Shown here in pieces: positions 8,908 through 33,630 of a stretch of 64,000 bases of DNA (position 1 is its first letter; every line of letters begins with the position of its first letter). This DNA is from Phycisphaerae bacterium (GTDB lineage: Bacteria > Planctomycetota > Phycisphaerae > JAAYCJ01). The translations under genes were made by a program, and so were the position numbers. The stretch lies in the NCBI GenBank assembly GCA_012729815.1, contig JAAYCJ010000014.1:1043-65042 (forward strand), given 5' to 3'. The notes beneath the pieces are model-generated. The model saw nothing but the letters and a program-made list of their open reading frames with translations. It was not told the DNA's origin and searched no databases.

Positions 8908-11232
8908 CTATCGGGCCTGACGGTGTGCTACGCCCGCGAGTTTCTTCTGCAGGCTGTCCAACTGGTCCGCCAGGATACTTCGCTCCTCCGGGGCCAGTTT
9001 TGCTTCGCCGAACCGCATCCGCAGATAGGCCCGCGTCAGGTCCACCATCTCCGGGTGGACGTCGGCCCGGATCAGGCGAAGGTCCTCGGTGAATTCCCAC
9101 GCCGTCCGCGTGACCGGTTTGGTGATCCCTCGCTTGGCCAGCGTCACCAGCGCGCCGCGGTAGAAGTCGATCGGGCAGGTCCAGACGTTGCCGTACTTGC
9201 GCTCCCAGCGTTTGGCCAGGTAACGGCGGAACCGCCGCAACCCCTTGGTCGAGACCAGCACCGAGATCCGCACGATCAGGTAGGCGAACGCGATCAGCAG
9301 CACGACCACGATCCAGTGCAGCACCTGGTGCCAGCGCGACTGGTAGTCCTCGCCCCGCAGCATGTCGATGAACCGCGTGATGACTCGCTTGATCGTCCAG
9401 GTCTGGCCCGCCTCGCCGGTCTCGTCGCCCAGGATCTGCTTGCGCAGGCCCTCGATGAACTCGCGCCGCTCGCTCTCGTCGTAGTTGGCCAGGTGCGAGA
9501 GCCACGTGAACCGCAGCAGGTCCACCGCGTCCCAGAACATCCGCACCAGCTTGCTCTCGACCGGTCGGATCGCCTCGTCCCGCGCCGCCGGCGTCGGGTC
9601 GAAGGTCGTCCAGCCCTTCCCGTCGAGGTACACCTCAGCCCACGCGTGGGCATCGCAATTGCGGATCGTGTAGTAGCCGCCGAACGCGTTGTAGTTGTAG
9701 CCGCCGTTCTTGAACCCGGTCACGATGCGGGCCTCCAGGCCCAGCGACCGGCACAGCAGCACGAACGCCGAGGCGAAGTACTCGCAGTGGCCGTGCTTGC
9801 GCCGCGTCAGGAAGTCGAACACCGGGTCGATCTGCGGCAGGACGTCGCGATTGTCCAGGTCGTACCGGAACTCGCCGCTGGTCCGCAGCCACATCTCCAG
9901 CTTGCGGGCCTGTTCCAGCGGCGAAAGCTCGCGCGCCTCCTTCGCGAGCACCTCCTGGGCCTTCTCCTGATAGCGATCCAGGTCCGCTTCGCCGCCGACC
10001 CGGTGACGCTGATGCGCCCGGAACCGCGCGATCATCGGCAGGGTCTCCCGCCGCACCGTCCGCTCCACGTCGCCGGCGGTGGGGGCCTTCGGCCAGATGT
10101 TCTGCGCCGGCGCCTCGTGCGAGGTCAGCAGCTTGTAGCAGAAGCCCTTCTTGGGATACTGCGAGGCCCGCAGGGTGTTGGTCTGCGGACAGTAGGTCAG
10201 CCGCATCTCCCGGTTTGTGGCGATCGCGGTGGGCGTGTCGATCACAAACAGGTTGGACGAAATCTCATCGTCGTAGTAGATGCGCCAGAAGATCTGCTTG
10301 GCCACCGCCTCCTTCGACAGCATCGCCGCGTCCTGGATCGGCACGGGGGTGTCCAGGCTGCGGGTCTGAACCACCCGCTCCTCGCCTTCCTTTTGCTCCT
10401 CCAGCCACTTCCAGAACTGCCCGTGGCGGGAATACTGCGTCTTGACCGACCCGCGCAGGTACATCAGCGGGGCCACGCCGCTCTTGCTGTCGCTGAGCAC
10501 CTTGACCCGCAGCACCGGGTCGTCATCCTCCATCAGGATGGTCATTTCGCCCAGGGTCAACTGCTCGCCGAAACCCGTCCGTGTGCTCTGGCGAGTCAGC
10601 GTGTTGCCCAGAAGCTGCATCGCCGGCGAGCCGCGCGGGATCAGCACGAAGATGGCCAGCGAGATGCTGCACGTCAGCACCGCCGTCACGAAGTAGCCGC
10701 TGATCCACGTGCGCCGGCGGACCTGCACCGCGATGCCGCGGCCCGCCGCCCCTTCGAACTGGCGGTGCGCCATCGCCTCGACCACCAGGTGGGTCTTGTA
10801 CAGCCAGTAGCCGGCCAGGGCCACGTAGGCCACCAGCACCACCGCGAATTCGGTGGTCGGAGTGACCGCGCCGGCGGCCAGCATCGCCATGACCGAGAGG
10901 ATCATCAGCTCCGAGAAATCGCTGACCTTGCCGATGCTGAAGCTCTTGATCAGGATCGCCGCGGTCAGAAAGTAGGCCAGGGCCTTGCCCGGTTCGAGTC
11001 GCAGCAGCAGGATGGACATCGCCAGCATGCCGATGCCGACCAGCACGATGAAGATCGAGACGAATCGCGGAACCCGGACGGGCCGGCCGATCCGCCGGTA
11101 CGCCACCAGCAGCACGATGCACGAGAAGACCATGATCCCGGTCGAGTGGTCCAGGTAGACCCGCGCCATCTCCCAGGTCGCCAGCGCGACGCTCAGGAAA
11201 CCCAGCGGCAGCAGTTCACGGGGTCTGACCAT
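8908..11232 (-). CDS. Transglutaminase-like membrane protein (TgpA-like: TM region, transglutaminase core, C-terminal TM/DUF4129-like)
   Basis: The Cys-His-Asp core is present (HGHCEYFASAFVLLCRSLGLEARIVTGF ... DAHAWAEVYLDGKGWTTFDPT). I re-called the start to the ATG of MVRPRELL, which sits 2 nt after the DUF58 TAA stop. The ORF track extends 267 codons further upstream with no stop, and that extension is spurious. Confidence 0.8.
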   Translation of the reverse strand: MVRPRELLPLGFLSVALATWEMARVYLDHSTGIMVFSCIVLLVAYRRIGRPVRVPRFVSIFIVLVGIGMLAMSILLLRLEPGKALAYFLTAAILIKSFSIGKVSDFSELMILSVMAMLAAGAVTPTTEFAVVLVAYVALAGYWLYKTHLVVEAMAHRQFEGAAGRGIAVQVRRRTWISGYFVTAVLTCSISLAIFVLIPRGSPAMQLLGNTLTRQSTRTGFGEQLTLGEMTILMEDDDPVLRVKVLSDSKSGVAPLMYLRGSVKTQYSRHGQFWKWLEEQKEGEERVVQTRSLDTPVPIQDAAMLSKEAVAKQIFWRIYYDDEISSNLFVIDTPTAIATNREMRLTYCPQTNTLRASQYPKKGFCYKLLTSHEAPAQNIWPKAPTAGDVERTVRRETLPMIARFRAHQRHRVGGEADLDRYQEKAQEVLAKEARELSPLEQARKLEMWLRTSGEFRYDLDNRDVLPQIDPVFDFLTRRKHGHCEYFASAFVLLCRSLGLEARIVTGFKNGGYNYNAFGGYYTIRNCDAHAWAEVYLDGKGWTTFDPTPAARDEAIRPVESKLVRMFWDAVDLLRFTWLSHLANYDESERREFIEGLRKQILGDETGEAGQTWTIKRVITRFIDMLRGEDYQSRWHQVLHWIVVVLLIAFAYLIVRISVLVSTKGLRRFRRYLAKRWERKYGNVWTCPIDFYRGALVTLAKRGITKPVTRTAWEFTEDLRLIRADVHPEMVDLTRAYLRMRFGEAKLAPEERSILADQLDSLQKKLAGVAHRQAR

Positions 11233-14572: not shown

Positions 14573-16849
14573 ATGAAACCGTCAATAATGCTGCCGGCTG
14601 CGTTTCTGTCCGTTTTCTGCTGGGCCAATGCCGCCACCGTCAATGTCTGGCTCGAAATCGACGCTTCGGCCAACGAGTACCGCGTGCTGGCCGAGTGCGT
14701 CGACGACGTCGCTGGGACCTGCGCCGGACTGGCCCTCTACAACGTCACGCTGAGCAACGTGGCGGAGTTGTACAACGACGGTCCGATGGCCTATGACGAG
14801 GCGGGCGAGACCACCACGCCGCTGGCCGGTTTCGTTTTGTTCCGCAGCGACAGCGGGGCCGGCGTCACCACGTTGGGCGCCGCCCAGAATACGTTTGATC
14901 CCAACGGAGCCCAGATCGTGTACGACATCGGCGACCAGGCGGTCGATCTGACCGCGCTCGTTTCAGCCGATGTCTACGTGCCCGCCGACGGTCAGGTCGC
15001 CGTGCCCGTTCAACTGGGCCACGGCACGTTCACCGGCGATCCGCCGAGCATCACCAACGCGACCTTCAATGTCTTTGATCCCGCCCGCGACGGCACCACT
15101 CAGCCGCCCGATACCGTCGCGATTCTCGATCCGGACATCGTCGGCGTCGAATACACCCTGACCGTCAGCGTCCAGGGCCAAGGCACGACCACGCCCGCCG
15201 CGGGCGATCATACGTATGACGAAGGCGTCCAAGTGGCGATCTTGGCCGCCGCCGCCGACGGTTGGCACTTCGTTCGCTGGCAGGGCGACGTGTCGGCCAC
15301 CAGCGCCGCCGCCTCGGTGACCATGAACGCCGACAAGGCCGTCACCGCCGTTTTTGAAGAGGATGCCGCCCAGTATGCCCTGACAGTGCAGGTCCAGGGC
15401 CAGGGGACGACCACGCCGGCCGCCGGCCAGCACACGTATGACGATGGGACGGTCGTTCCTCTCTCAGCCGCCGCCGCCGACGGCTGGCATTTCGTCCGTT
15501 GGCAGGGCGACGTCGCCGGAACCAGTCCCTCCTCCTCCATCACGATCAGCAGCAACAAATCGGTGACCGCCGTCTTCGAGCAGGACGCCGCCCAGTACAC
15601 GCTGACCGTCAACGTCCAAGGTCAGGGCGCGACCACGCCCGCCGCCGGTCAGCACACCTATGATGAAGGGGCCGCCGTCCCGCTGACCGCCACGCCCGCC
15701 GGCGGCTGGCACTTCGTCCGGTGGGAAGGCGACGCCTCCGGCGCCCAGGAGTCCACCCAGGTTACCATGGACAGCGCGATGACCGTCACCGCCGTCTTCG
15801 AGCGAGACACCGCCCAATACGCGCTGACCGTCAACGTCCAGGGCCAGGGCACAACGACGCCCGCCGCCGGTCAGCACACCTACGATCAGGGCGCCCAGGT
15901 AAACCTCGGCGCCACGCCCGCACAAGGTTGGCACTTTGTCCGGTGGGAGGGCGACGTGTCCGGCGTCAATCCGAACGTTGGGGTCACCATGGACTCCAGC
16001 AAGTCCGTCACCGCGGTCTTTGAGCAGGACGCGGCCCAGTACACGCTAACCGTCAACGTCCAGGGCGACGGGACCACCGATCCCAATGCCGGTCAGCACA
16101 GCTACGATGCAAACGCCGCGGTCGAGGTTGCCGCTACCGCCGCCGACGGCTGGCATTTCGTCCGCTGGCAGGGCGATGCGACCGGAACCGCGCCAACCCT
16201 GACCGTCACCATGGACCGCGGCAAGAGCGTCACCGCCGTCTTTGAGCAGGACGCCGCCGAATACGTCCTGACCGTCAACGTCCAGGGCAGCGGCTCGACC
16301 AATCCGGTTCCCGGCCAGCACAGCTACGCGGACGGAACCGAGGTAATCGTCGCGGCCACACCCGTCGAGGGCTGGCACTTTGTCCGGTGGGAGGGCGATT
16401 TGACGGGCGCCACCGCCACGGCATCGCTGACGATGGACGCCAGCCAGTCGATCACCGCGGTCTTCGAGCAGGACGCGGCCCAGTACACGCTGACCGTCAA
16501 CGTCCAGGGCCAGGGCACGACGGCGCCCGCTGCCGGCCAGCATGCCTACGACAGCGGAACCGAGGTCGCCCTCTCGGCTGCCCCGGCCGAAGACTGGGAG
16601 TTCATCCGCTGGGAGGGTGACATCTCCGCGACCGACCCGAACACCACCGTGACCATGAACGCGGGCAAGTCGGTCACCGCCGTTTTCCAAGCCGAGGCGG
16701 TTGATCCCAATGATCCCAACCAGCCGTCCGACCCCAACGAAACCAACGGCGACGTTCCTCCCATCGGCGGATGCCTCATGACCGCCATGGTCGTCGGACT
16801 GGCTGTGGCCTTCGGATTCGCCATGCTCGGACTATATCGGGAGTCGTAG
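14573..16849 (+). CDS. Secreted repeat protein with 7 tandem InlB-B-type (Listeria-Bacteroides repeat, TIGR02543-like) domains and a C-terminal TM anchor
   Basis: Start re-called to MKPSIMLPAAFLSVFCWANA (signal peptide), which has a GGAGAG RBS; the listed ORF start at 14504 is upstream. It contains seven ~74-aa repeats of the form YTLTVNVQGQGTTTPAAGQHTYD...GWHFVRWEGD...SVTAVFEQDAAQ. The C-terminus (VPPIGG, hydrophobic helix, YRES) may be a degenerate PEP-CTERM-like anchor. Confidence 0.75.
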   Translation: MKPSIMLPAAFLSVFCWANAATVNVWLEIDASANEYRVLAECVDDVAGTCAGLALYNVTLSNVAELYNDGPMAYDEAGETTTPLAGFVLFRSDSGAGVTTLGAAQNTFDPNGAQIVYDIGDQAVDLTALVSADVYVPADGQVAVPVQLGHGTFTGDPPSITNATFNVFDPARDGTTQPPDTVAILDPDIVGVEYTLTVSVQGQGTTTPAAGDHTYDEGVQVAILAAAADGWHFVRWQGDVSATSAAASVTMNADKAVTAVFEEDAAQYALTVQVQGQGTTTPAAGQHTYDDGTVVPLSAAAADGWHFVRWQGDVAGTSPSSSITISSNKSVTAVFEQDAAQYTLTVNVQGQGATTPAAGQHTYDEGAAVPLTATPAGGWHFVRWEGDASGAQESTQVTMDSAMTVTAVFERDTAQYALTVNVQGQGTTTPAAGQHTYDQGAQVNLGATPAQGWHFVRWEGDVSGVNPNVGVTMDSSKSVTAVFEQDAAQYTLTVNVQGDGTTDPNAGQHSYDANAAVEVAATAADGWHFVRWQGDATGTAPTLTVTMDRGKSVTAVFEQDAAEYVLTVNVQGSGSTNPVPGQHSYADGTEVIVAATPVEGWHFVRWEGDLTGATATASLTMDASQSITAVFEQDAAQYTLTVNVQGQGTTAPAAGQHAYDSGTEVALSAAPAEDWEFIRWEGDISATDPNTTVTMNAGKSVTAVFQAEAVDPNDPNQPSDPNETNGDVPPIGGCLMTAMVVGLAVAFGFAMLGLYRES
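15152..16695 (+). repeat. Intragenic tandem DNA repeat, 7 copies of ~222 bp at high identity
   Basis: Near-identical nucleotide blocks recur in frame (for example gccgtcttcgagcaggacgccgcccagtacacgctgaccgtcaacgtccagggccagggc). These encode the InlB-B repeats; it is not a CRISPR array. Confidence 0.8.
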
Positions 16850-16874
16850 TCCTTCCAATGGACCAGTAACTTCT

Positions 16875-16910
16875 GACCCGGTCGCCAGTTCGCGGCCGGG
16901 TCTTTCTATG
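16875..16910 (+). terminator. Putative intrinsic terminator downstream of the repeat-protein gene
   Basis: A GC-rich hairpin GACCCGG...CCGGGTC is followed by TTTCT. Confidence 0.35.
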
Positions 16911-16971
16911 GCGGCGGCCAATACTGAATATTATAATCAAGCATTATGATTGATAGGTGGTGGCCTGATCA

Positions 16972-17000
16972 TTGATCTGGGCTCGGCAATCGCATATACT
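16972..17000 (+). promoter_or_regulatory. Putative sigma70-like promoter (TTGATC, 17-nt spacer, TATACT) for the 17045 gene
   Basis: The hexamers sit in the AT-richer intergenic region about 45 nt upstream of the ATG, which has a GGAGAA RBS. Confidence 0.35.
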
Positions 17001-17044
17001 GCAATGACCGACAAGCCCTTTGGAGACCAAGGAGAAACCCGAGT

Positions 17045-18970
17045 ATGCGGCGATTCCCTTCGGCGGCGATCTGCCTGATTACTGTGTCCGCGGCGGCGTT
17101 CCTGGGGGCCTGCAACGGTCCCGTCAACAACCTGGCCAAGAATCAGGAGTATCTCCTGACGGTCAGCGTCGAGGGCCATGGCACGGTCAGCCCGGACACC
17201 CTCACCTACAACGCCGGGACTTCCGTGGTCCTCGTGGCGGAGCCCGCCGCCGGCTGGCACTTCGTCCGATGGGAAGGCTCCGGTCAGGGCACCGGCGATA
17301 CGCTGCAACTGGTCATGGACCGCGATCGCGCGGTCACCGCGGTTTTTGAGGAGGGTGTGCTTCAATACACCTTGACCGTGGAAGTCGAGGGCCAGGGCAG
17401 CGTTAACCCTTCATCCGGCGCGCATGGGTACGATCCGAATTCCATCGTTAACCTCACCGCCACCGCCGCCGACGGCTGGCGCTTCGTCGAGTGGCAGGGC
17501 TTCGCCGGCGGGACCGACCCTGCGACCACCGTTACCATGACCGGCAACAAGACGGTCAAAGCCGTCTTCGAGGAGGATACGTCGCAGACGCTGACCATCG
17601 CGGTTCAGGGCCAGGGTACGGTCGATCCGGCGGTCGGTCAGCACGAGTATGAGAGGGACACGCAGGTGAGCGTGAAGGCCGCCGCCGCCGACGGCTGGCA
17701 CTTCGTTCGATGGGAAGGGGACGCCGCCGGCAACACACCCAGCGCGACCGTCTCCATGGACGCCGACAAGACGGTCACCGCCGTCTTTGAAGAGGACAGC
17801 GACGCATACAACCTGACCATCGCCGTCAGCGGCCAGGGGACCACCGATCCCGCCGCCGGGACTCACAGCTATCCTGCCGACGGATCGGTCAGCCTGACCG
17901 CCGCCGCCGCCGCCGGCTGGCATTTCGTCCGCTGGCAGGGCGACGCCCAGGGCACCTCGCCGACGGTCGAATTGACGATGGGTTCGGCCAAGACGGTCAC
18001 CGCGATCTTCGAGGAGGACGCGGCCGAATATACCCTCACCGTCTCGGCCATCGGCCAGGGCACCGTGGATCCGGCCGTCGGAGGCTACAGCTACGCCGAC
18101 GGCCAGCAGGTCACGCTGACCGCCACGGCGGGCGAGAGCTGGCGGTTCGACCGCTGGCAGGGCGACGTGACCGGGACGGACAACCCCGTCACGGTGACCA
18201 TGTCCGCCACCCGCAGCGTGACCGCCGTCTTCGTCCGCCAGTATCGCCTGAGCGTGGCCGCGACCGGCCAGGGAACCACCAGCCCGGCCGTTGGCGATCA
18301 TTTCTACGACGTCGGCCAGACCGTGACCGTCTCAGCCACGCCCGCCAACGGCTGGCGATTCCTCGATTGGACCGGCGACCTGTCCTCGTCCAACCAGAGC
18401 GCCGATCTGGTCATGGACGACGACAAGGCCATCACCGCCTCCTTCGGCGGCGCGGGCGTCCAGGTCATGATCGAAACCTCCAAAGGCAATATTCTCGTCG
18501 AACTGGACGATGAGCTGGCGCCGGTCACCGTCGAAAACTTCCTCAGTTACGTCGATGAGGGGTTCTACGACGGGACCGACGGCAAAGAGGCCACCATCTT
18601 CCACCGCGTGATTCCCGATTTCATGGTTCAGTGCGGCGGCTTCACCGAAGAGCTGGAAGAGAAGGAGACGCACGACCCGATCGTCCTCGAGTCGGACAAC
18701 GGCTTGAGGAACGTGCGGGGCACGATCGCGATGGCCCGCACCACCGAACCCGACAGCGCCACCTCGCAGTTTTTCATCAACGTGGTGGACAACGATTTCC
18801 TCAACTACGCGAGCGAAGCGAAGCCCGGCTACGCCGTTTTCGGCCGCGTGCTGGAGGGCATGGACGTCGCCGACGAGATCGTCGCCGTCGAGACCGCCTC
18901 CGTCGGTCCGCACGACGACGTGCCGGTGGAGGCCATCTTCATTACCTCCGTGTATCGCGTTGAGGAATGA
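17045..18970 (+). CDS. Lipoprotein with six InlB-B-type repeats fused to a C-terminal cyclophilin-type peptidyl-prolyl isomerase domain
   Basis: The signal peptide carries a lipobox (FLGAC). Six GWHFVRWEGD-type repeats follow. The C-terminal 170 aa (VMIETSKGNILVELDDELAPVTVENF...[15 protein letters not shown]...ARTTEPDSATSQFFINV) is a clear cyclophilin. Confidence 0.8.
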   Translation: MRRFPSAAICLITVSAAAFLGACNGPVNNLAKNQEYLLTVSVEGHGTVSPDTLTYNAGTSVVLVAEPAAGWHFVRWEGSGQGTGDTLQLVMDRDRAVTAVFEEGVLQYTLTVEVEGQGSVNPSSGAHGYDPNSIVNLTATAADGWRFVEWQGFAGGTDPATTVTMTGNKTVKAVFEEDTSQTLTIAVQGQGTVDPAVGQHEYERDTQVSVKAAAADGWHFVRWEGDAAGNTPSATVSMDADKTVTAVFEEDSDAYNLTIAVSGQGTTDPAAGTHSYPADGSVSLTAAAAAGWHFVRWQGDAQGTSPTVELTMGSAKTVTAIFEEDAAEYTLTVSAIGQGTVDPAVGGYSYADGQQVTLTATAGESWRFDRWQGDVTGTDNPVTVTMSATRSVTAVFVRQYRLSVAATGQGTTSPAVGDHFYDVGQTVTVSATPANGWRFLDWTGDLSSSNQSADLVMDDDKAITASFGGAGVQVMIETSKGNILVELDDELAPVTVENFLSYVDEGFYDGTDGKEATIFHRVIPDFMVQCGGFTEELEEKETHDPIVLESDNGLRNVRGTIAMARTTEPDSATSQFFINVVDNDFLNYASEAKPGYAVFGRVLEGMDVADEIVAVETASVGPHDDVPVEAIFITSVYRVEE

Positions 18971-24914: not shown

Positions 24915-24970
24915 AAAAAGAGGCCGCCCAACAGCGACCTCTTCTATTCTGGCTTCTGACTTCCGCCTTC

Positions 24971-25654
24971 TTACTTCTTTTCCGCCTTCTCGATCACCAC
25001 CGGCTCGGCCGGCACATTCTCGTGCGGTCCGACCCTCGTCGTCCGCACCGCGACGATCTTGTCCACCACGTCCATCCCCTCGACCACCTTGCCGAACACC
25101 GCGTAGCCCGGATTCCGCGCCCCGCGATAGTTCAGGAAATCGTTGTTCGCCACGTTGACAAAGAACTGCGCCGTCGCGCTGTCCGGATCGGCGGTCCGCG
25201 CCATCGCGATCGTGCCGCGCAGGTTCTTCAAGCCGTTCGCGGCTTCGTTCTTGATCGGCTTGTGCACCCGCTTCTGCTCCATCCGCGGCGTGAACCCGCC
25301 GCCCTGGATCATGAAGTCCGGGATCACCCGGTGAAAGATCGTCCCGTCGAAATGCCCCTCTTCGACGTACCGCAGGAAGTTCTTCGCTGTGATCGGCGCC
25401 TTCTCTTCATTCAGCTCCAGCACGATCCGGCCCATGCTCGTCTCGAGCACCACCTGCGGCGCCTTCGGCTGGGTGGTCGGCTGAGTCGCCGGCTGCGTCG
25501 AAGCCTGCTCGCTCGGCCTGGTCGTCGGTTTCTGATCCGTCATGGTCGTCTCCTTTGTGGTTCCTTCATCCGCCCGGCTTTCCCAACTGCCGTACCCGAT
25601 CAGCCACGCCAGTCCCGCCGTCAACGCCCCAGCCGCGATCAGTGAACGCTTCAT
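24971..25654 (-). CDS. Secreted cyclophilin-type peptidyl-prolyl cis-trans isomerase
   Basis: A signal peptide and a Thr/Pro/Gln-rich linker precede the cyclophilin core ([15 protein letters not shown]...[17 protein letters not shown]). It is a paralog of the C-terminal domain of 17045..18970. Confidence 0.85.
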
Positions 25655-25787: not shown

Positions 25788-26501
25788 CTATAATCCCAAA
25801 AACTGGATCGCCAGACCCGAACCGCAGATCACCAGCCCCGCCAAAGCGTGAGCGTAGCGTTCCAGCTTGCCCAGCGGCACGAACGACAGGCCCGCCGACG
25901 AGAGCAGCACCACGCCCATCATCGTCGCGATCGTCACCGCCCCGAACACGCCGGCCACCGCCGCCACGCCCCAAAGGCTGTTCTTGATCGCTGGGTACAT
26001 CAGCACCGGGATCAGCGGCTCGCACGGCCCGAACACGAAGATCGTGAACAGAATCCACGGCGTCATGCTCACCGCCGCCTCTTGGCTGTGGACGTGAACG
26101 TGCTCCTGGTGGTGCGTGTGCTCGTGCACGTGCGATTCCTGCTCGCCGTGCTCGTGCCAGTGGCGGTGCGGCTGATTGCGGTACGCCCGCCGCAGACCCC
26201 ACACGAAATACGCGAACCCGAACGCGATCAGCCCCCACGCCGCGATCTGCCCGCGATGCGACTCGATTTCCACCAGACTGTCCACCGCCGCGCCGAGCGC
26301 GATTCCCGCGAACCCCAGCACCACCGAACTGCCGATATGCCCCACTCCGCATGCGAACGTCACTGCAGTCGTCTTCGGCAGCGACCAGCGCCCCGCCTTC
26401 GACATCATGATAAACGGCAGATAATGATCCGGTCCCAGCAGCGTATGGAAAAACCCGATCGACGCCGCCGTCGCCAGCAACAAGCCCATCTCACTGCTCA
26501 T
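25788..26501 (-). CDS. NicO/RcnA-like nickel/cobalt transporter
   Basis: Six TM helices. The TM motif FHTLLGPDH resembles RcnA HAxGPGHGK. There is a His-rich loop HRHWHEHGEQESHVHEHTHHQEHVHVH. Confidence 0.55.
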   Translation of the reverse strand: MSSEMGLLLATAASIGFFHTLLGPDHYLPFIMMSKAGRWSLPKTTAVTFACGVGHIGSSVVLGFAGIALGAAVDSLVEIESHRGQIAAWGLIAFGFAYFVWGLRRAYRNQPHRHWHEHGEQESHVHEHTHHQEHVHVHSQEAAVSMTPWILFTIFVFGPCEPLIPVLMYPAIKNSLWGVAAVAGVFGAVTIATMMGVVLLSSAGLSFVPLGKLERYAHALAGLVICGSGLAIQFLGL

Positions 26502-26639
26502 CGCGAAAATCCTTCACTCAAAGCCTTCGGTGTTAGCGGAGAGTCTACCGATCCGCCTCCGCCCACGCAATGGTAGGGCGGGAGGTTCTCGCCGAAGGCG
26601 AGGTTCACCCGCCATCCGAAAACCAACGACGAAATAAAT

Positions 26640-26692
26640 AACGTAGCTCCGCCGCCCCCGGCGGAGTCTTCCTTCATTCTGACTTCTGACCA
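26640..26692 (-). terminator. Hairpin-repeat element acting as an intrinsic terminator downstream of rnpB (copy 1 of a repeat family)
   Basis: On the minus strand: hairpin GACUCCGCCGGGGGCGGCGGAGC followed by UACGUUAUUUAUUUCG. Related copies lie at 32368 and 33541. Confidence 0.5.
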
Positions 26693-26745
26693 CTGAATTC
26701 TGAGTTCTTTTCCCCATCCCCCCTCCCTCACCCGCCGCGCGCAAA

Positions 26746-27140
26746 AAAAGAGAGCGTTCCATAAGCCGAATTCTGTCTCCCGATCGCTCGGGAGGGCGGC
26801 CATTTATCTGGGCCCGCCGTTGCCGACAGGCTCGTGCGGCCTACCCGGGACTCGAACGAGACGGGCCGCCTCGTCCGGACGCTTCCGCGCCCGGTCGTCC
26901 CCTATTTGGCCTTGCCGGCGGTGGGGTTTGCCGTGCCCCCGACGTCGCCGCCGGGGCGGTGAGCTCTTACCTCGCCTTTTCACCCTTACCCGTCCACGCC
27001 GAAGCGCCGACGGGCGGTATCTTTTCTGTGGCACTTTCCCTGGGGTCACCCCCGGTGGACGTTATCCACCACCGCGCCCGGTCCGGTTCGGACTTTCCTC
27101 CCAGCCAACGGCTGAGCGGCCGCCTGGAACACTCTCTCTA
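26746..27140 (-). ncRNA. rnpB: RNase P RNA (bacterial type A)
   Basis: The reverse complement carries the conserved blocks GGGAGGAAAGUCCG (P4 5' strand), GGGAAAGUGCCACAGAAA, GGGUAAGGGUGAAAAGGCGAGGUAAGAGCUCACC, GGCAAGGCCAAAUAGGGGA, GUCCCGGGUAGGCCGCACGAGCC and ACAGAAUUCGGCUUAUGGAACGCUCUCU, with P1/P2/P4 pairings consistent with E. coli M1 RNA. The ORFs overlapping this locus are spurious. Confidence 0.9.
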
Positions 27141-30716: not shown

Positions 30717-30739
30717 ACCATCCCCCCCGCAAGGGCGGT

Positions 30740-30865
30740 GAAGGCAAAATGCAACATGCAGAAGGCAAAATGCAGAATGAAGAGGCCTGACGACACACCG
30801 GCGGCCCCCATCGCCGGGCACGCCACCTCTTCTCATTTTGCACTTTGCATTTTGCCTTCTGCATT
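30740..30865. other. Imperfect ~120-nt palindrome between the CheB/R fusion gene and the kinase gene
   Basis: gaaggcaaaatgc...(loop)...gcattttgccttc is a perfect 13-bp pair. An outer gaagagg/cctcttc pair flanks it, and ggcaaaatgca direct repeats occur inside. No U-tract follows. Confidence 0.3.
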
Positions 30866-30909
30866 CTCCATTGGCATTTCCTCCTGGCTTCTTCTTCGGA
30901 GCCTTGTCC

Positions 30910-32235: not shown

Positions 32236-32367
32236 CGACCCGCACCCGCCAAAGAGAAACCTCCGCCGTCGATTCCACTTCCCTTTAAGACGGCCCGGAT
32301 CACGCGGAACACGCGGAGGGGATAAAGAAGAAATGAAAATTGAAAATATCAAATACCAAAAATCAAA

Positions 32368-32455
32368 ATGTGGCTCCGCCGCCCTCGGCGGAGTCTTCTC
32401 CTCATTCTGACTTCTGGCTTCTTTCCCTCCGCGCGTTCCGCGTGCTCCGTGCTGA
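32368..32455. repeat. ~90-bp hairpin-repeat element, copy 2 (acts as a minus-strand terminator after the radical SAM pseudogene)
   Basis: tgtggctccgccgccctcggcggagtcttctcctcattctgacttctggcttctttccctccgcgcgttccgcgtgctccg. On the minus strand the hairpin is followed by a long U-rich tract ACAUUUUGAUUUUUGGUAUUUGAUAUUUUC. Confidence 0.6.
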
Positions 32456-32469
32456 TCTTCATGGGTCTT

Positions 32470-33540: not shown

Positions 33541-33630
33541 TGTGGCTCCGCCGCCCCCGGCGGAGTCTTCCTTCTTCATTCTGGCTACTGACTTCTGCCT
33601 TCTCCCCTCCGCGTGCTCCGCGTGATCCGC
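33541..33630. repeat. ~90-bp hairpin-repeat element, copy 3
   Basis: tgtggctccgccgcccccggcggagtcttccttcttcattctggctactgacttctgccttctcccctccgcgtgctccgcgtgatccg. It sits in the divergent intergenic region upstream of the radical SAM pseudogene. Confidence 0.6.

Follow-up and report, generated by a model that had tools for sequence, protein, structure and literature searches.

GTAG-tagged REP elements with a RAYT as the probable identity of repeated intergenic hairpins in an uncultured Phycisphaerae bacterium

Why does the same GC-rich hairpin occur at three intergenic sites spanning less than 7 kb in the genome of a Phycisphaerae bacterium? The whole stretch of DNA analysed here (64 kb, the window in what follows) contains the motif CTCCGCCG-N4-CGGCGGAG exactly three times, at 26647-26666, 32374-32393, and 33546-33565, always on the plus strand. 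By chance, 0.28 occurrences are expected, and three or more were reached in none of 100 shuffles of the window. A repeat search of the window gave the same three hairpin sites as the direct-repeat family D16. By reading and aligning the copies, it was found that the unit is 29 nt long and consists of a GT[AG]G head, an 8-bp GC stem, a CCCY loop, and a TCTTC tail (GT[AG]G-CTCCGCCG-CCCY-CGGCGGAG-TCTTC). In the window copies, the 8-bp stem is perfect and closes a 4-nt loop, with a DNA folding energy of -10.9 to -11.5 kcal/mol and a z-score of about -4.5. An unpaired GTAG or GTGG lies directly 5′ of the stem in all three, and TCTTC is followed by a pyrimidine tail with a 7-nt periodicity (CATTCTG ACTTCTG GCTTCTT ...). 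The copies and their appendages are as follows; they are called REP copies in accordance with the reading reached below.

26643-26671, plus strand: REP copy 1, with a GTAG tag, an 8-bp stem, a CCCC loop (26647-26666), and TCTTC; R1 score 57.7 bits; DNA hairpin of -10.9 kcal/mol
26672-26709, plus strand: heptad-periodic pyrimidine tail of copy 1, CTTCATTCTGACTTCTGACCACTGAATTCTGAGTTCTT, without a GC-rich outer arm
32370-32398, plus strand: REP copy 2, with a GTGG tag, a CCCT loop (stem-loop 32374-32393), and TCTTC; R1 score 60.6 bits; tip of a long palindrome
33542-33570, plus strand: REP copy 3, with a GTGG tag, a CCCC loop (stem-loop 33546-33565), and TCTTC; R1 score 58.8 bits
33571-33631, plus strand: tail and arm of copy 3, with heptads at 33571-33605 and the right outer arm CCTCCGCGTGCTCCGCGTGATCC at 33606-33628; a half-element without the mirrored left arm

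R1 is a covariance model built from the alignment of the hairpin family (A2) and run on the whole 64-kb window with the filters off. It scores the three copies at 57.7-60.6 bits and the next best match at 13.7 bits. Thus, the window has three copies and no diverged ones. The three full hairpin copies with a conserved pyrimidine-rich tail, as described in the initial annotation, are confirmed.

Is the hairpin also present beyond the window? According to the initial annotation, a genome-wide scan without further copies would refute the family; further copies did come up. Exact window proteins were found in JGI bioreactor-type metagenomes (Ga0123329, Ga0123332, and Ga0123333), in ENA assemblies, and in NCBI MAGs. 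In the metagenome scan, the hairpin with TCTTC was found at 48 loci, which were de-duplicated to 20 distinct GT[AG]G-tagged copies and four untagged ones; all of these come from loci picked for containing the pattern, and the figures are not a genome-wide count. In other words, the GT[AG]G tag lies directly 5′ of the stem in 20 of the 24 family copies with TCTTC. The metagenome copies occupy at least 17 different loci and are recovered by R1 at 39-63 bits, and most of them lie on contigs with ~64% GC from the same sample series as the window. Since the contigs belong to this organism and a close relative, with at least two closely related strains or species represented, some of the "distinct" copies are orthologous (L017/L039 and L019/L041). 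All three window copies are intergenic, and so are all of the ~25 copies examined, according to gene calls by third-position GC content, a measure by which true and spurious ORFs are cleanly told apart in this genome, although the calls are crude. A hairpin scan of species-representative genomes yielded mostly chance matches within genes, along with one related family in the Phycisphaerales MAG SMAG_U12035 (L008 and L009). By a search with the CheB/CheR fusion protein, no relative above 49% identity was found besides the same organism. The PPIase cluster variants L066 and L067 are 99.97-99.98% identical to the window and thus uninformative for comparison.

What do the hairpins do at these sites? 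They had been considered initially to act as intrinsic terminators when transcribed from the minus strand. The following features surround copy 1 and another hairpin that has to be told apart from the family.

25788-26501, minus strand: gene for a His-rich membrane protein
26747-27135, minus strand: rnpB (bacterial RNase P RNA, class A), found by an Rfam search at 284.6 bits
24920-24970, no strand assigned: bidirectional terminator hairpin between the convergent Wzy_C and PPIase genes, not a REP; A7 upstream, hairpin at 24920-24941, then the heptad tail TTCTATTCTGGCTTCTGACTTCC

Copy 1 separates rnpB, whose 3′ end (minus strand) is ~80 nt upstream of it, from the His-rich membrane protein gene, whose start is 135 nt downstream. 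Copy 2 is placed where two genes converge, with the stop of a histidine kinase gene on one side (32235, plus strand) and that of a radical SAM gene on the other (32586, minus strand). At copy 3, which is also intergenic, two genes diverge: the radical SAM gene starts on one side (33464, minus strand) and a 1111-aa gene on the other (33740, plus strand). Both the window and some assemblies have the radical SAM gene (33464 to 32586, minus strand) in split form, with a 172-aa N-terminal ORF, while it is intact (292 aa) in the JGI contig Ga0123333_10000873.

Could the hairpins be primarily intrinsic (Rho-independent) terminators, which are alike through duplication or convergence of one design and not through mobility? 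Two of the three window copies are indeed located downstream of 3′ ends (of rnpB, and of the convergent histidine kinase and radical SAM genes). A consensus terminator scan flags 33544 and 26652 (partial stem) in the plus orientation, in which the stem runs into the TCTTCCTTC tail. Of the 11 copies in tandem gene pairs, 9 point the same way with respect to transcription by the crude gene calls, a bias that could reflect either selection or strand-biased insertion; lagging-strand targeting was considered as a possible source. However, none of the three copies is flagged in the minus orientation, in which the U-rich stretch begins 5 nt past the stem (CYACAUUU). In an intrinsic terminator, a U tract comes within 0-2 nt of the GC-rich stem. 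Copy 3 and the L020 copy are between divergent genes, and copy 3 can thus terminate neither of its neighbours. Furthermore, termination needs no unpaired GTRG tag, CCCY loop, and TCTTC tail conserved at 20 or more loci and across species, and it leaves unaccounted for a transposase gene (RAYT, described below) that is bracketed by the same hairpin. Thus, termination is very unlikely to be the primary nature of the hairpins, and the initial claim of minus-strand terminators is weak. For copies 1 and 2, the minus-sense RNA folds into a longer hairpin, as the purine-rich tail base-pairs with the U-rich stretch downstream. Termination or RNA 3′-end protection at 26647 and 32374 is plausible as a putative side effect, which does not explain the family.

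The hairpin between the Wzy_C and PPIase genes is a different matter. The segment 24915-24975 had been regarded as a tail-only relic of the family. It does contain TTCTGGC/TTCTGAC heptads as in the REP tails, but its hairpin is another one, a canonical bidirectional terminator, and 24971-24979 is the end of the PPIase coding sequence. The hairpin at 24920-24941 (GAGGcCGC/GCGaCCTC) has an 8-bp stem with one mismatch, an A7 flank, and a T-rich sequence on the other side. On the minus strand, it was flagged by the consensus terminator scan, and it folds there into a 13-bp stem followed by U7, at -27.5 kcal/mol.

A few other structures and repeats were noticed in the window. A U7 run (A7 on the plus strand, 26743-26749) abuts the rnpB 3′ end without a separate hairpin, the first strong downstream hairpin being REP copy 1. 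Between copy 1 and the His-rich membrane protein gene, there is a ~140-nt GC-rich and apparently structured leader (26502-26640, minus strand). For the 5′ leader of the 25788-26501 gene, no Rfam match was obtained even at E = 1, and no riboswitch was found. The CheB/CheR-PAS fusion gene and the histidine kinase gene are separated by a region with a palindrome of ~135 nt (30737-30872), the RNA fold z-score of which is about -5 on both strands. Its arms are heptad-like (GCAGAAG GCAAAAT GCAGAAT / CATTTTG CCTTCTG CATTCTC), and its centre is CCGGCG-N8-CGCCGG. This palindrome was considered as a repeat family and rejected, as no second copy was present among any of the fetched loci. Tandem repeat arrays with a unit of 222 nt (74 aa) inside two large genes (15142-18240) correspond to Flg_new_2 (PF18998) repeat domains.

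Is there a transposase that belongs to the hairpins? By tblastn, no RAYT gene was found within the window. A RAYT gene was found in the metagenome locus L060, as a 167-aa ORF at 10516-11016 on the minus strand, and also in L061 and L065. In L060, three REPs lie within 900 bp around this gene, two in plus orientation before it (10297 and 10436) and one in minus orientation past it (11179), with their GTRG tags facing outward. Besides this pair enclosing the RAYT gene, no inverted REP doublets were found; the R1 matches are singletons or head-to-tail pairs (L057 and L060). The flanking of RAYT genes by inverted REPs is known from the literature (PMC3733652 and PMC2817692); RAYTs have been defined by Nunvar et al. 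2010 (PMC2817692), and RAYT/TnpA-REP has also been described by Messing et al. 2012 (PMC3479197). The RAYT scores 84.6 bits against the equivalog model NF047646 of NCBIfam (REP_Tyr_transpos, REP-associated tyrosine transposase), the cutoff of which is 80. It matches E. coli TnpA-REP (PDB 4ER8) weakly (E 2e-4), with the HUH motif (HVH vs HMH) and the catalytic-Tyr motif (NYIcaNPV vs DYIyiNPV) aligned. Pfam Y1_Tnp (PF01797) gave no match on the L060 RAYT at E 0.001; this domain is present in most of 400 RAYT homologues, and many of the homologues are named "REP element-mobilizing transposase RayT" in their source. RAYTs typically occur once per genome and have no tnpB partner; next to the RAYT gene in L060 and L065, there is likewise no tnpB, but RmuC on one hand and an unrelated gene on the other. 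An exact match of the RAYT is the protein NLX07373.1, whose locus tag is GXY33_19715. Among the window proteins NLX03669.1 and NLX03670.1, the latter is GXY33_00850 and is labelled "Phycisphaerae bacterium". Thus, the common GXY33_ prefix places the RAYT and the window protein in the same MAG.

In summary, I consider the hairpins to be GTAG-tagged REP elements of an uncultured Phycisphaerae bacterium with a RAYT in the same MAG, with a probability of about 0.85. Among the features of GTAG REPs, three are present, namely the short palindrome (20-40 nt in such REPs), the GTRG tag left unpaired, and inverted copies on both sides of a RAYT gene; a high genome-wide copy number is likely and was observed in part. 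The hairpins are a known sort of bacterial repeat and not a new class of terminators. As for the initial suggestion of a "REP- or MITE-like" mobile element, the REP half specifically is supported by the GT[AG]G tag, the extragenic and multi-copy occurrence, and the bracketed RAYT of the same MAG.

Do other Phycisphaerae have similar loci? Two related REP-RAYT loci were found.

L068, Phycisphaerales MAG: REP of the form GTGG-CACAGCCG-CCCY-CGGCTGTG-TCTTC, a dozen copies and variants around a RAYT homologue
L069, Sedimentisphaerales MAG: REP of the form GTAG-CCCAGCCG-CCCC-CGGCTGGG, around a RAYT homologue

Across the window family, L068, and L069, the tag and the loop are conserved, whereas TCTTC is common to the window family and L068 but not L069. 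At four of the eight stem pairs, compensatory changes on both sides were found between the lineages. The L068 and L069 instances were picked with at least 7 of 8 complementary positions. Therefore, the paired percentage is partly by construction, and only the compensatory changes between lineages are informative. With the stem co-varying and the GTRG tag and CCCY loop fixed (and TCTTC in two of the three lineages), the fixed positions are those that the transposase probably reads. The GTRG-tagged REPs form dense clusters at the RAYT genes of L068 (2680-3735) and L069 (2700-3580). In L069, each REP is paired with a second hairpin, GCCTCAGCC-TCGG-CTGAGGC.

How large is the mobile unit? Copy 2 is the tip of a much longer palindrome, which the initial annotation does not mention.

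32293-32452, no strand assigned: composite palindrome around copy 2, ~160 nt, near-perfect; outer arms at 32293-32327 and 32418-32452, 35 nt each and 83% complementary

Inside this palindrome, an A-rich heptad spacer lies to the left of copy 2 and a TTCTGRC heptad tail to the right. RNA folds of 32285-32460 on the two strands have energies of -97.5 and -85.9 kcal/mol and z-scores of -11.2 and -9.1. Of the three occurrences of the outer-arm motif CCTCCGCGTGNTCCGCGTG(A/C)TCC in the window, two flank copy 2 and one is on the right of copy 3; this second conserved module is also absent from the initial annotation. In about 14 copies, a larger unit was recognized, which consists of the REP, TCTTC, two to five heptads (YTTCTGR or CTACTGR), and a GC-rich arm ending in GCTCCGTGC (with TCCGTGC at the end); in L024 and L032, the heptads are CCCnAAn. 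At least five loci (window 32293-32452, L030, L041, L055, and L023) have a second, mirrored arm across the REP. The outer-arm motif nearly always has a REP no more than ~130 nt away and is almost never present elsewhere. One NCBI MAG contig, L014, ends within the 32293-32452 palindrome, which is what assembly-breaking repeats would produce.

Two other explanations come up at this point. One holds that the true mobile unit is the MITE/REPIN-like composite palindrome of ~160 nt (outer arms, heptad spacers, and central hairpin) and that the bare and half copies are its decay products. The closeness of the outer-arm motif to a REP in nearly every case, the mirrored arms at five or more loci, the fold z-score of -11, and strains that differ by the loss or gain of exactly one arm agree with this explanation. 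So do the REPs that are regularly embedded in longer palindromes in a few species, as reported by Di Nocera et al. (PMC3733652). On the other hand, the REPs flanking the RAYT gene have neither a heptad tail nor an outer arm, and in L027, L035, and L043, which are other metagenome contigs with lower GC, the 29-nt core is kept while arms and heptads are absent. Moreover, the single filled-versus-empty junction has no target-site duplication, and a REPIN needs two inverted REPs, while here only one REP is at the tip. The composite palindrome as the true unit is a possibility worth keeping, though doubtful; it is compatible with the REP reading and not exclusive of it. The other explanation regards the repeats as a family of small-RNA genes, each with its own terminator hairpin. 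The folds are stable, but no Rfam family fits: the sole match is a plant miRNA hairpin model on the long palindrome, at 30 bits against a gathering score of 184. In the Rfam search at the gathering and E-value thresholds, only rnpB was matched besides this sub-threshold hit. There is also no conserved promoter, the orientation relative to neighbouring genes is mixed, and the sequence linking core and arm is hypervariable. Thus, small RNAs are an extremely unlikely explanation.

Heptad microsatellites without a REP also occur in intergenic regions of the same organism, at 30834 in the window and at L024 5698-5727, L034 2758-2788, and L057 12336-12375. Their units are AATGAAA-like (L024), ATTGCTG x4 (L034), and CCTAAAG x4 (L057), the last of which adjoins a repeated GTCCGCCAAAGGCGGAC hairpin.

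How fast does the element change? L019 (60-330) and L041 (2955-3300), which are 99.55% identical over 6.7 kb, differ by an indel of 74-78 nt that is exactly the left arm of the composite. Their elements also differ in the fourth loop base (CCCT vs CCCG) and by densely clustered substitutions that do not extend beyond the heptad tail. Between L017 and L039, which are 97% identical, a 28-nt indel adjoins the REP. These differences indicate that the element changes as fast as strains diverge. No target-site duplication was found at the filled-versus-empty junction of L019/L041, the sole one available. Among the strain pairs compared, no clean insertion of a whole copy was captured; the L019/L041 indel hits the arm and spares the REP core. 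I also considered the idea that a single GTRG-tagged REP tip with heptad arms and a GC-rich clamp may represent a distinct, undescribed, REP-derived non-autonomous element of Planctomycetota. Its arms would change by slippage or copy-to-copy conversion at the strain level, and its ~160-nt hairpins would serve as bidirectional insulators between genes. This idea is speculative and rather unlikely to hold as a whole.

For the GTAG-tagged REPs, a mechanism may be proposed by analogy with E. coli TnpA-REP and the IS200/IS605 family. The RAYT would recognize the hairpin and the GTRG tag on single-stranded DNA, and then would cleave and rejoin the single-stranded DNA at the hairpin. Such cleavage and rejoining would spread and maintain the REP copies. 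On transcription, the hairpins may act as pause sites for RNA polymerase or as obstacles to 3′ exonucleases, as a putative secondary effect. With the present family, a REP-RAYT pair is added from Phycisphaerae, a class that has been little studied and is mostly uncultured; the general understanding of REPs is left unchanged. For annotators, the family explains the breaks of MAG contigs of this organism at REP sites and advises caution against calling every such hairpin a terminator. The heptad arms and the strain-level loss of arms could serve as strain markers.

How does the family compare with known systems? In E. coli, REP/BIME sequences are stabilisers of RNA 3′ ends or attenuators. Like these and like intrinsic terminators, the Phycisphaerae hairpins are GC-rich, lie in 3′ intergenic regions, and are partly followed by a U-rich sequence. 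Unlike them, the U tract is set off from the stem in the minus orientation, and one window copy is in a divergent promoter region. From the MITE criteria, TIR-like outer arms are present in ~5 copies, and no duplication was seen at the one junction available. A REPIN is composed of two inverted REPs with a spacer (Bertels & Rainey 2011, PMC3116915). The composite resembles REPINs in being non-autonomous, RAYT-associated, and able to form a long hairpin, and differs in that the palindrome has a single REP as its tip and arms of another sequence. Since inverted REP doublets are limited to the pair around the RAYT gene, it is not a strict REPIN. It is more like the REPs embedded in longer palindromes, in which the REP is central and the palindrome rarely occurs without it, as far as the available part of PMC3733652 goes. 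In contrast to those, the Phycisphaerae arms are set off by variable numbers of heptads, and many copies are one-armed.

The last comparison is with the GTAG REP superfamily itself (Di Nocera, De Gregorio & Rocco 2013, PMC3733652). That paper describes GTRG and GTGG variants, including GTGG-dominated families, as well as families with mostly single units, and already names hosts in the PVC superphylum (O. terrae and R. baltica). In the accessible part of its text, neither the host class Phycisphaerae nor the present stem sequence is named. Further differences are that the Phycisphaerae copies are mostly singletons and not head-to-head dimers, and that many of them have a heptad-microsatellite tail and a conserved GC-rich arm. 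With the superfamily, the Phycisphaerae family shares an 8-bp stem and a 4-nt loop, flanked on one side by an unpaired GT[AG]G and on the other by a short conserved tail. It also shares the extragenic, multi-copy occurrence and a Y1-HUH RAYT gene bracketed by inverted copies.
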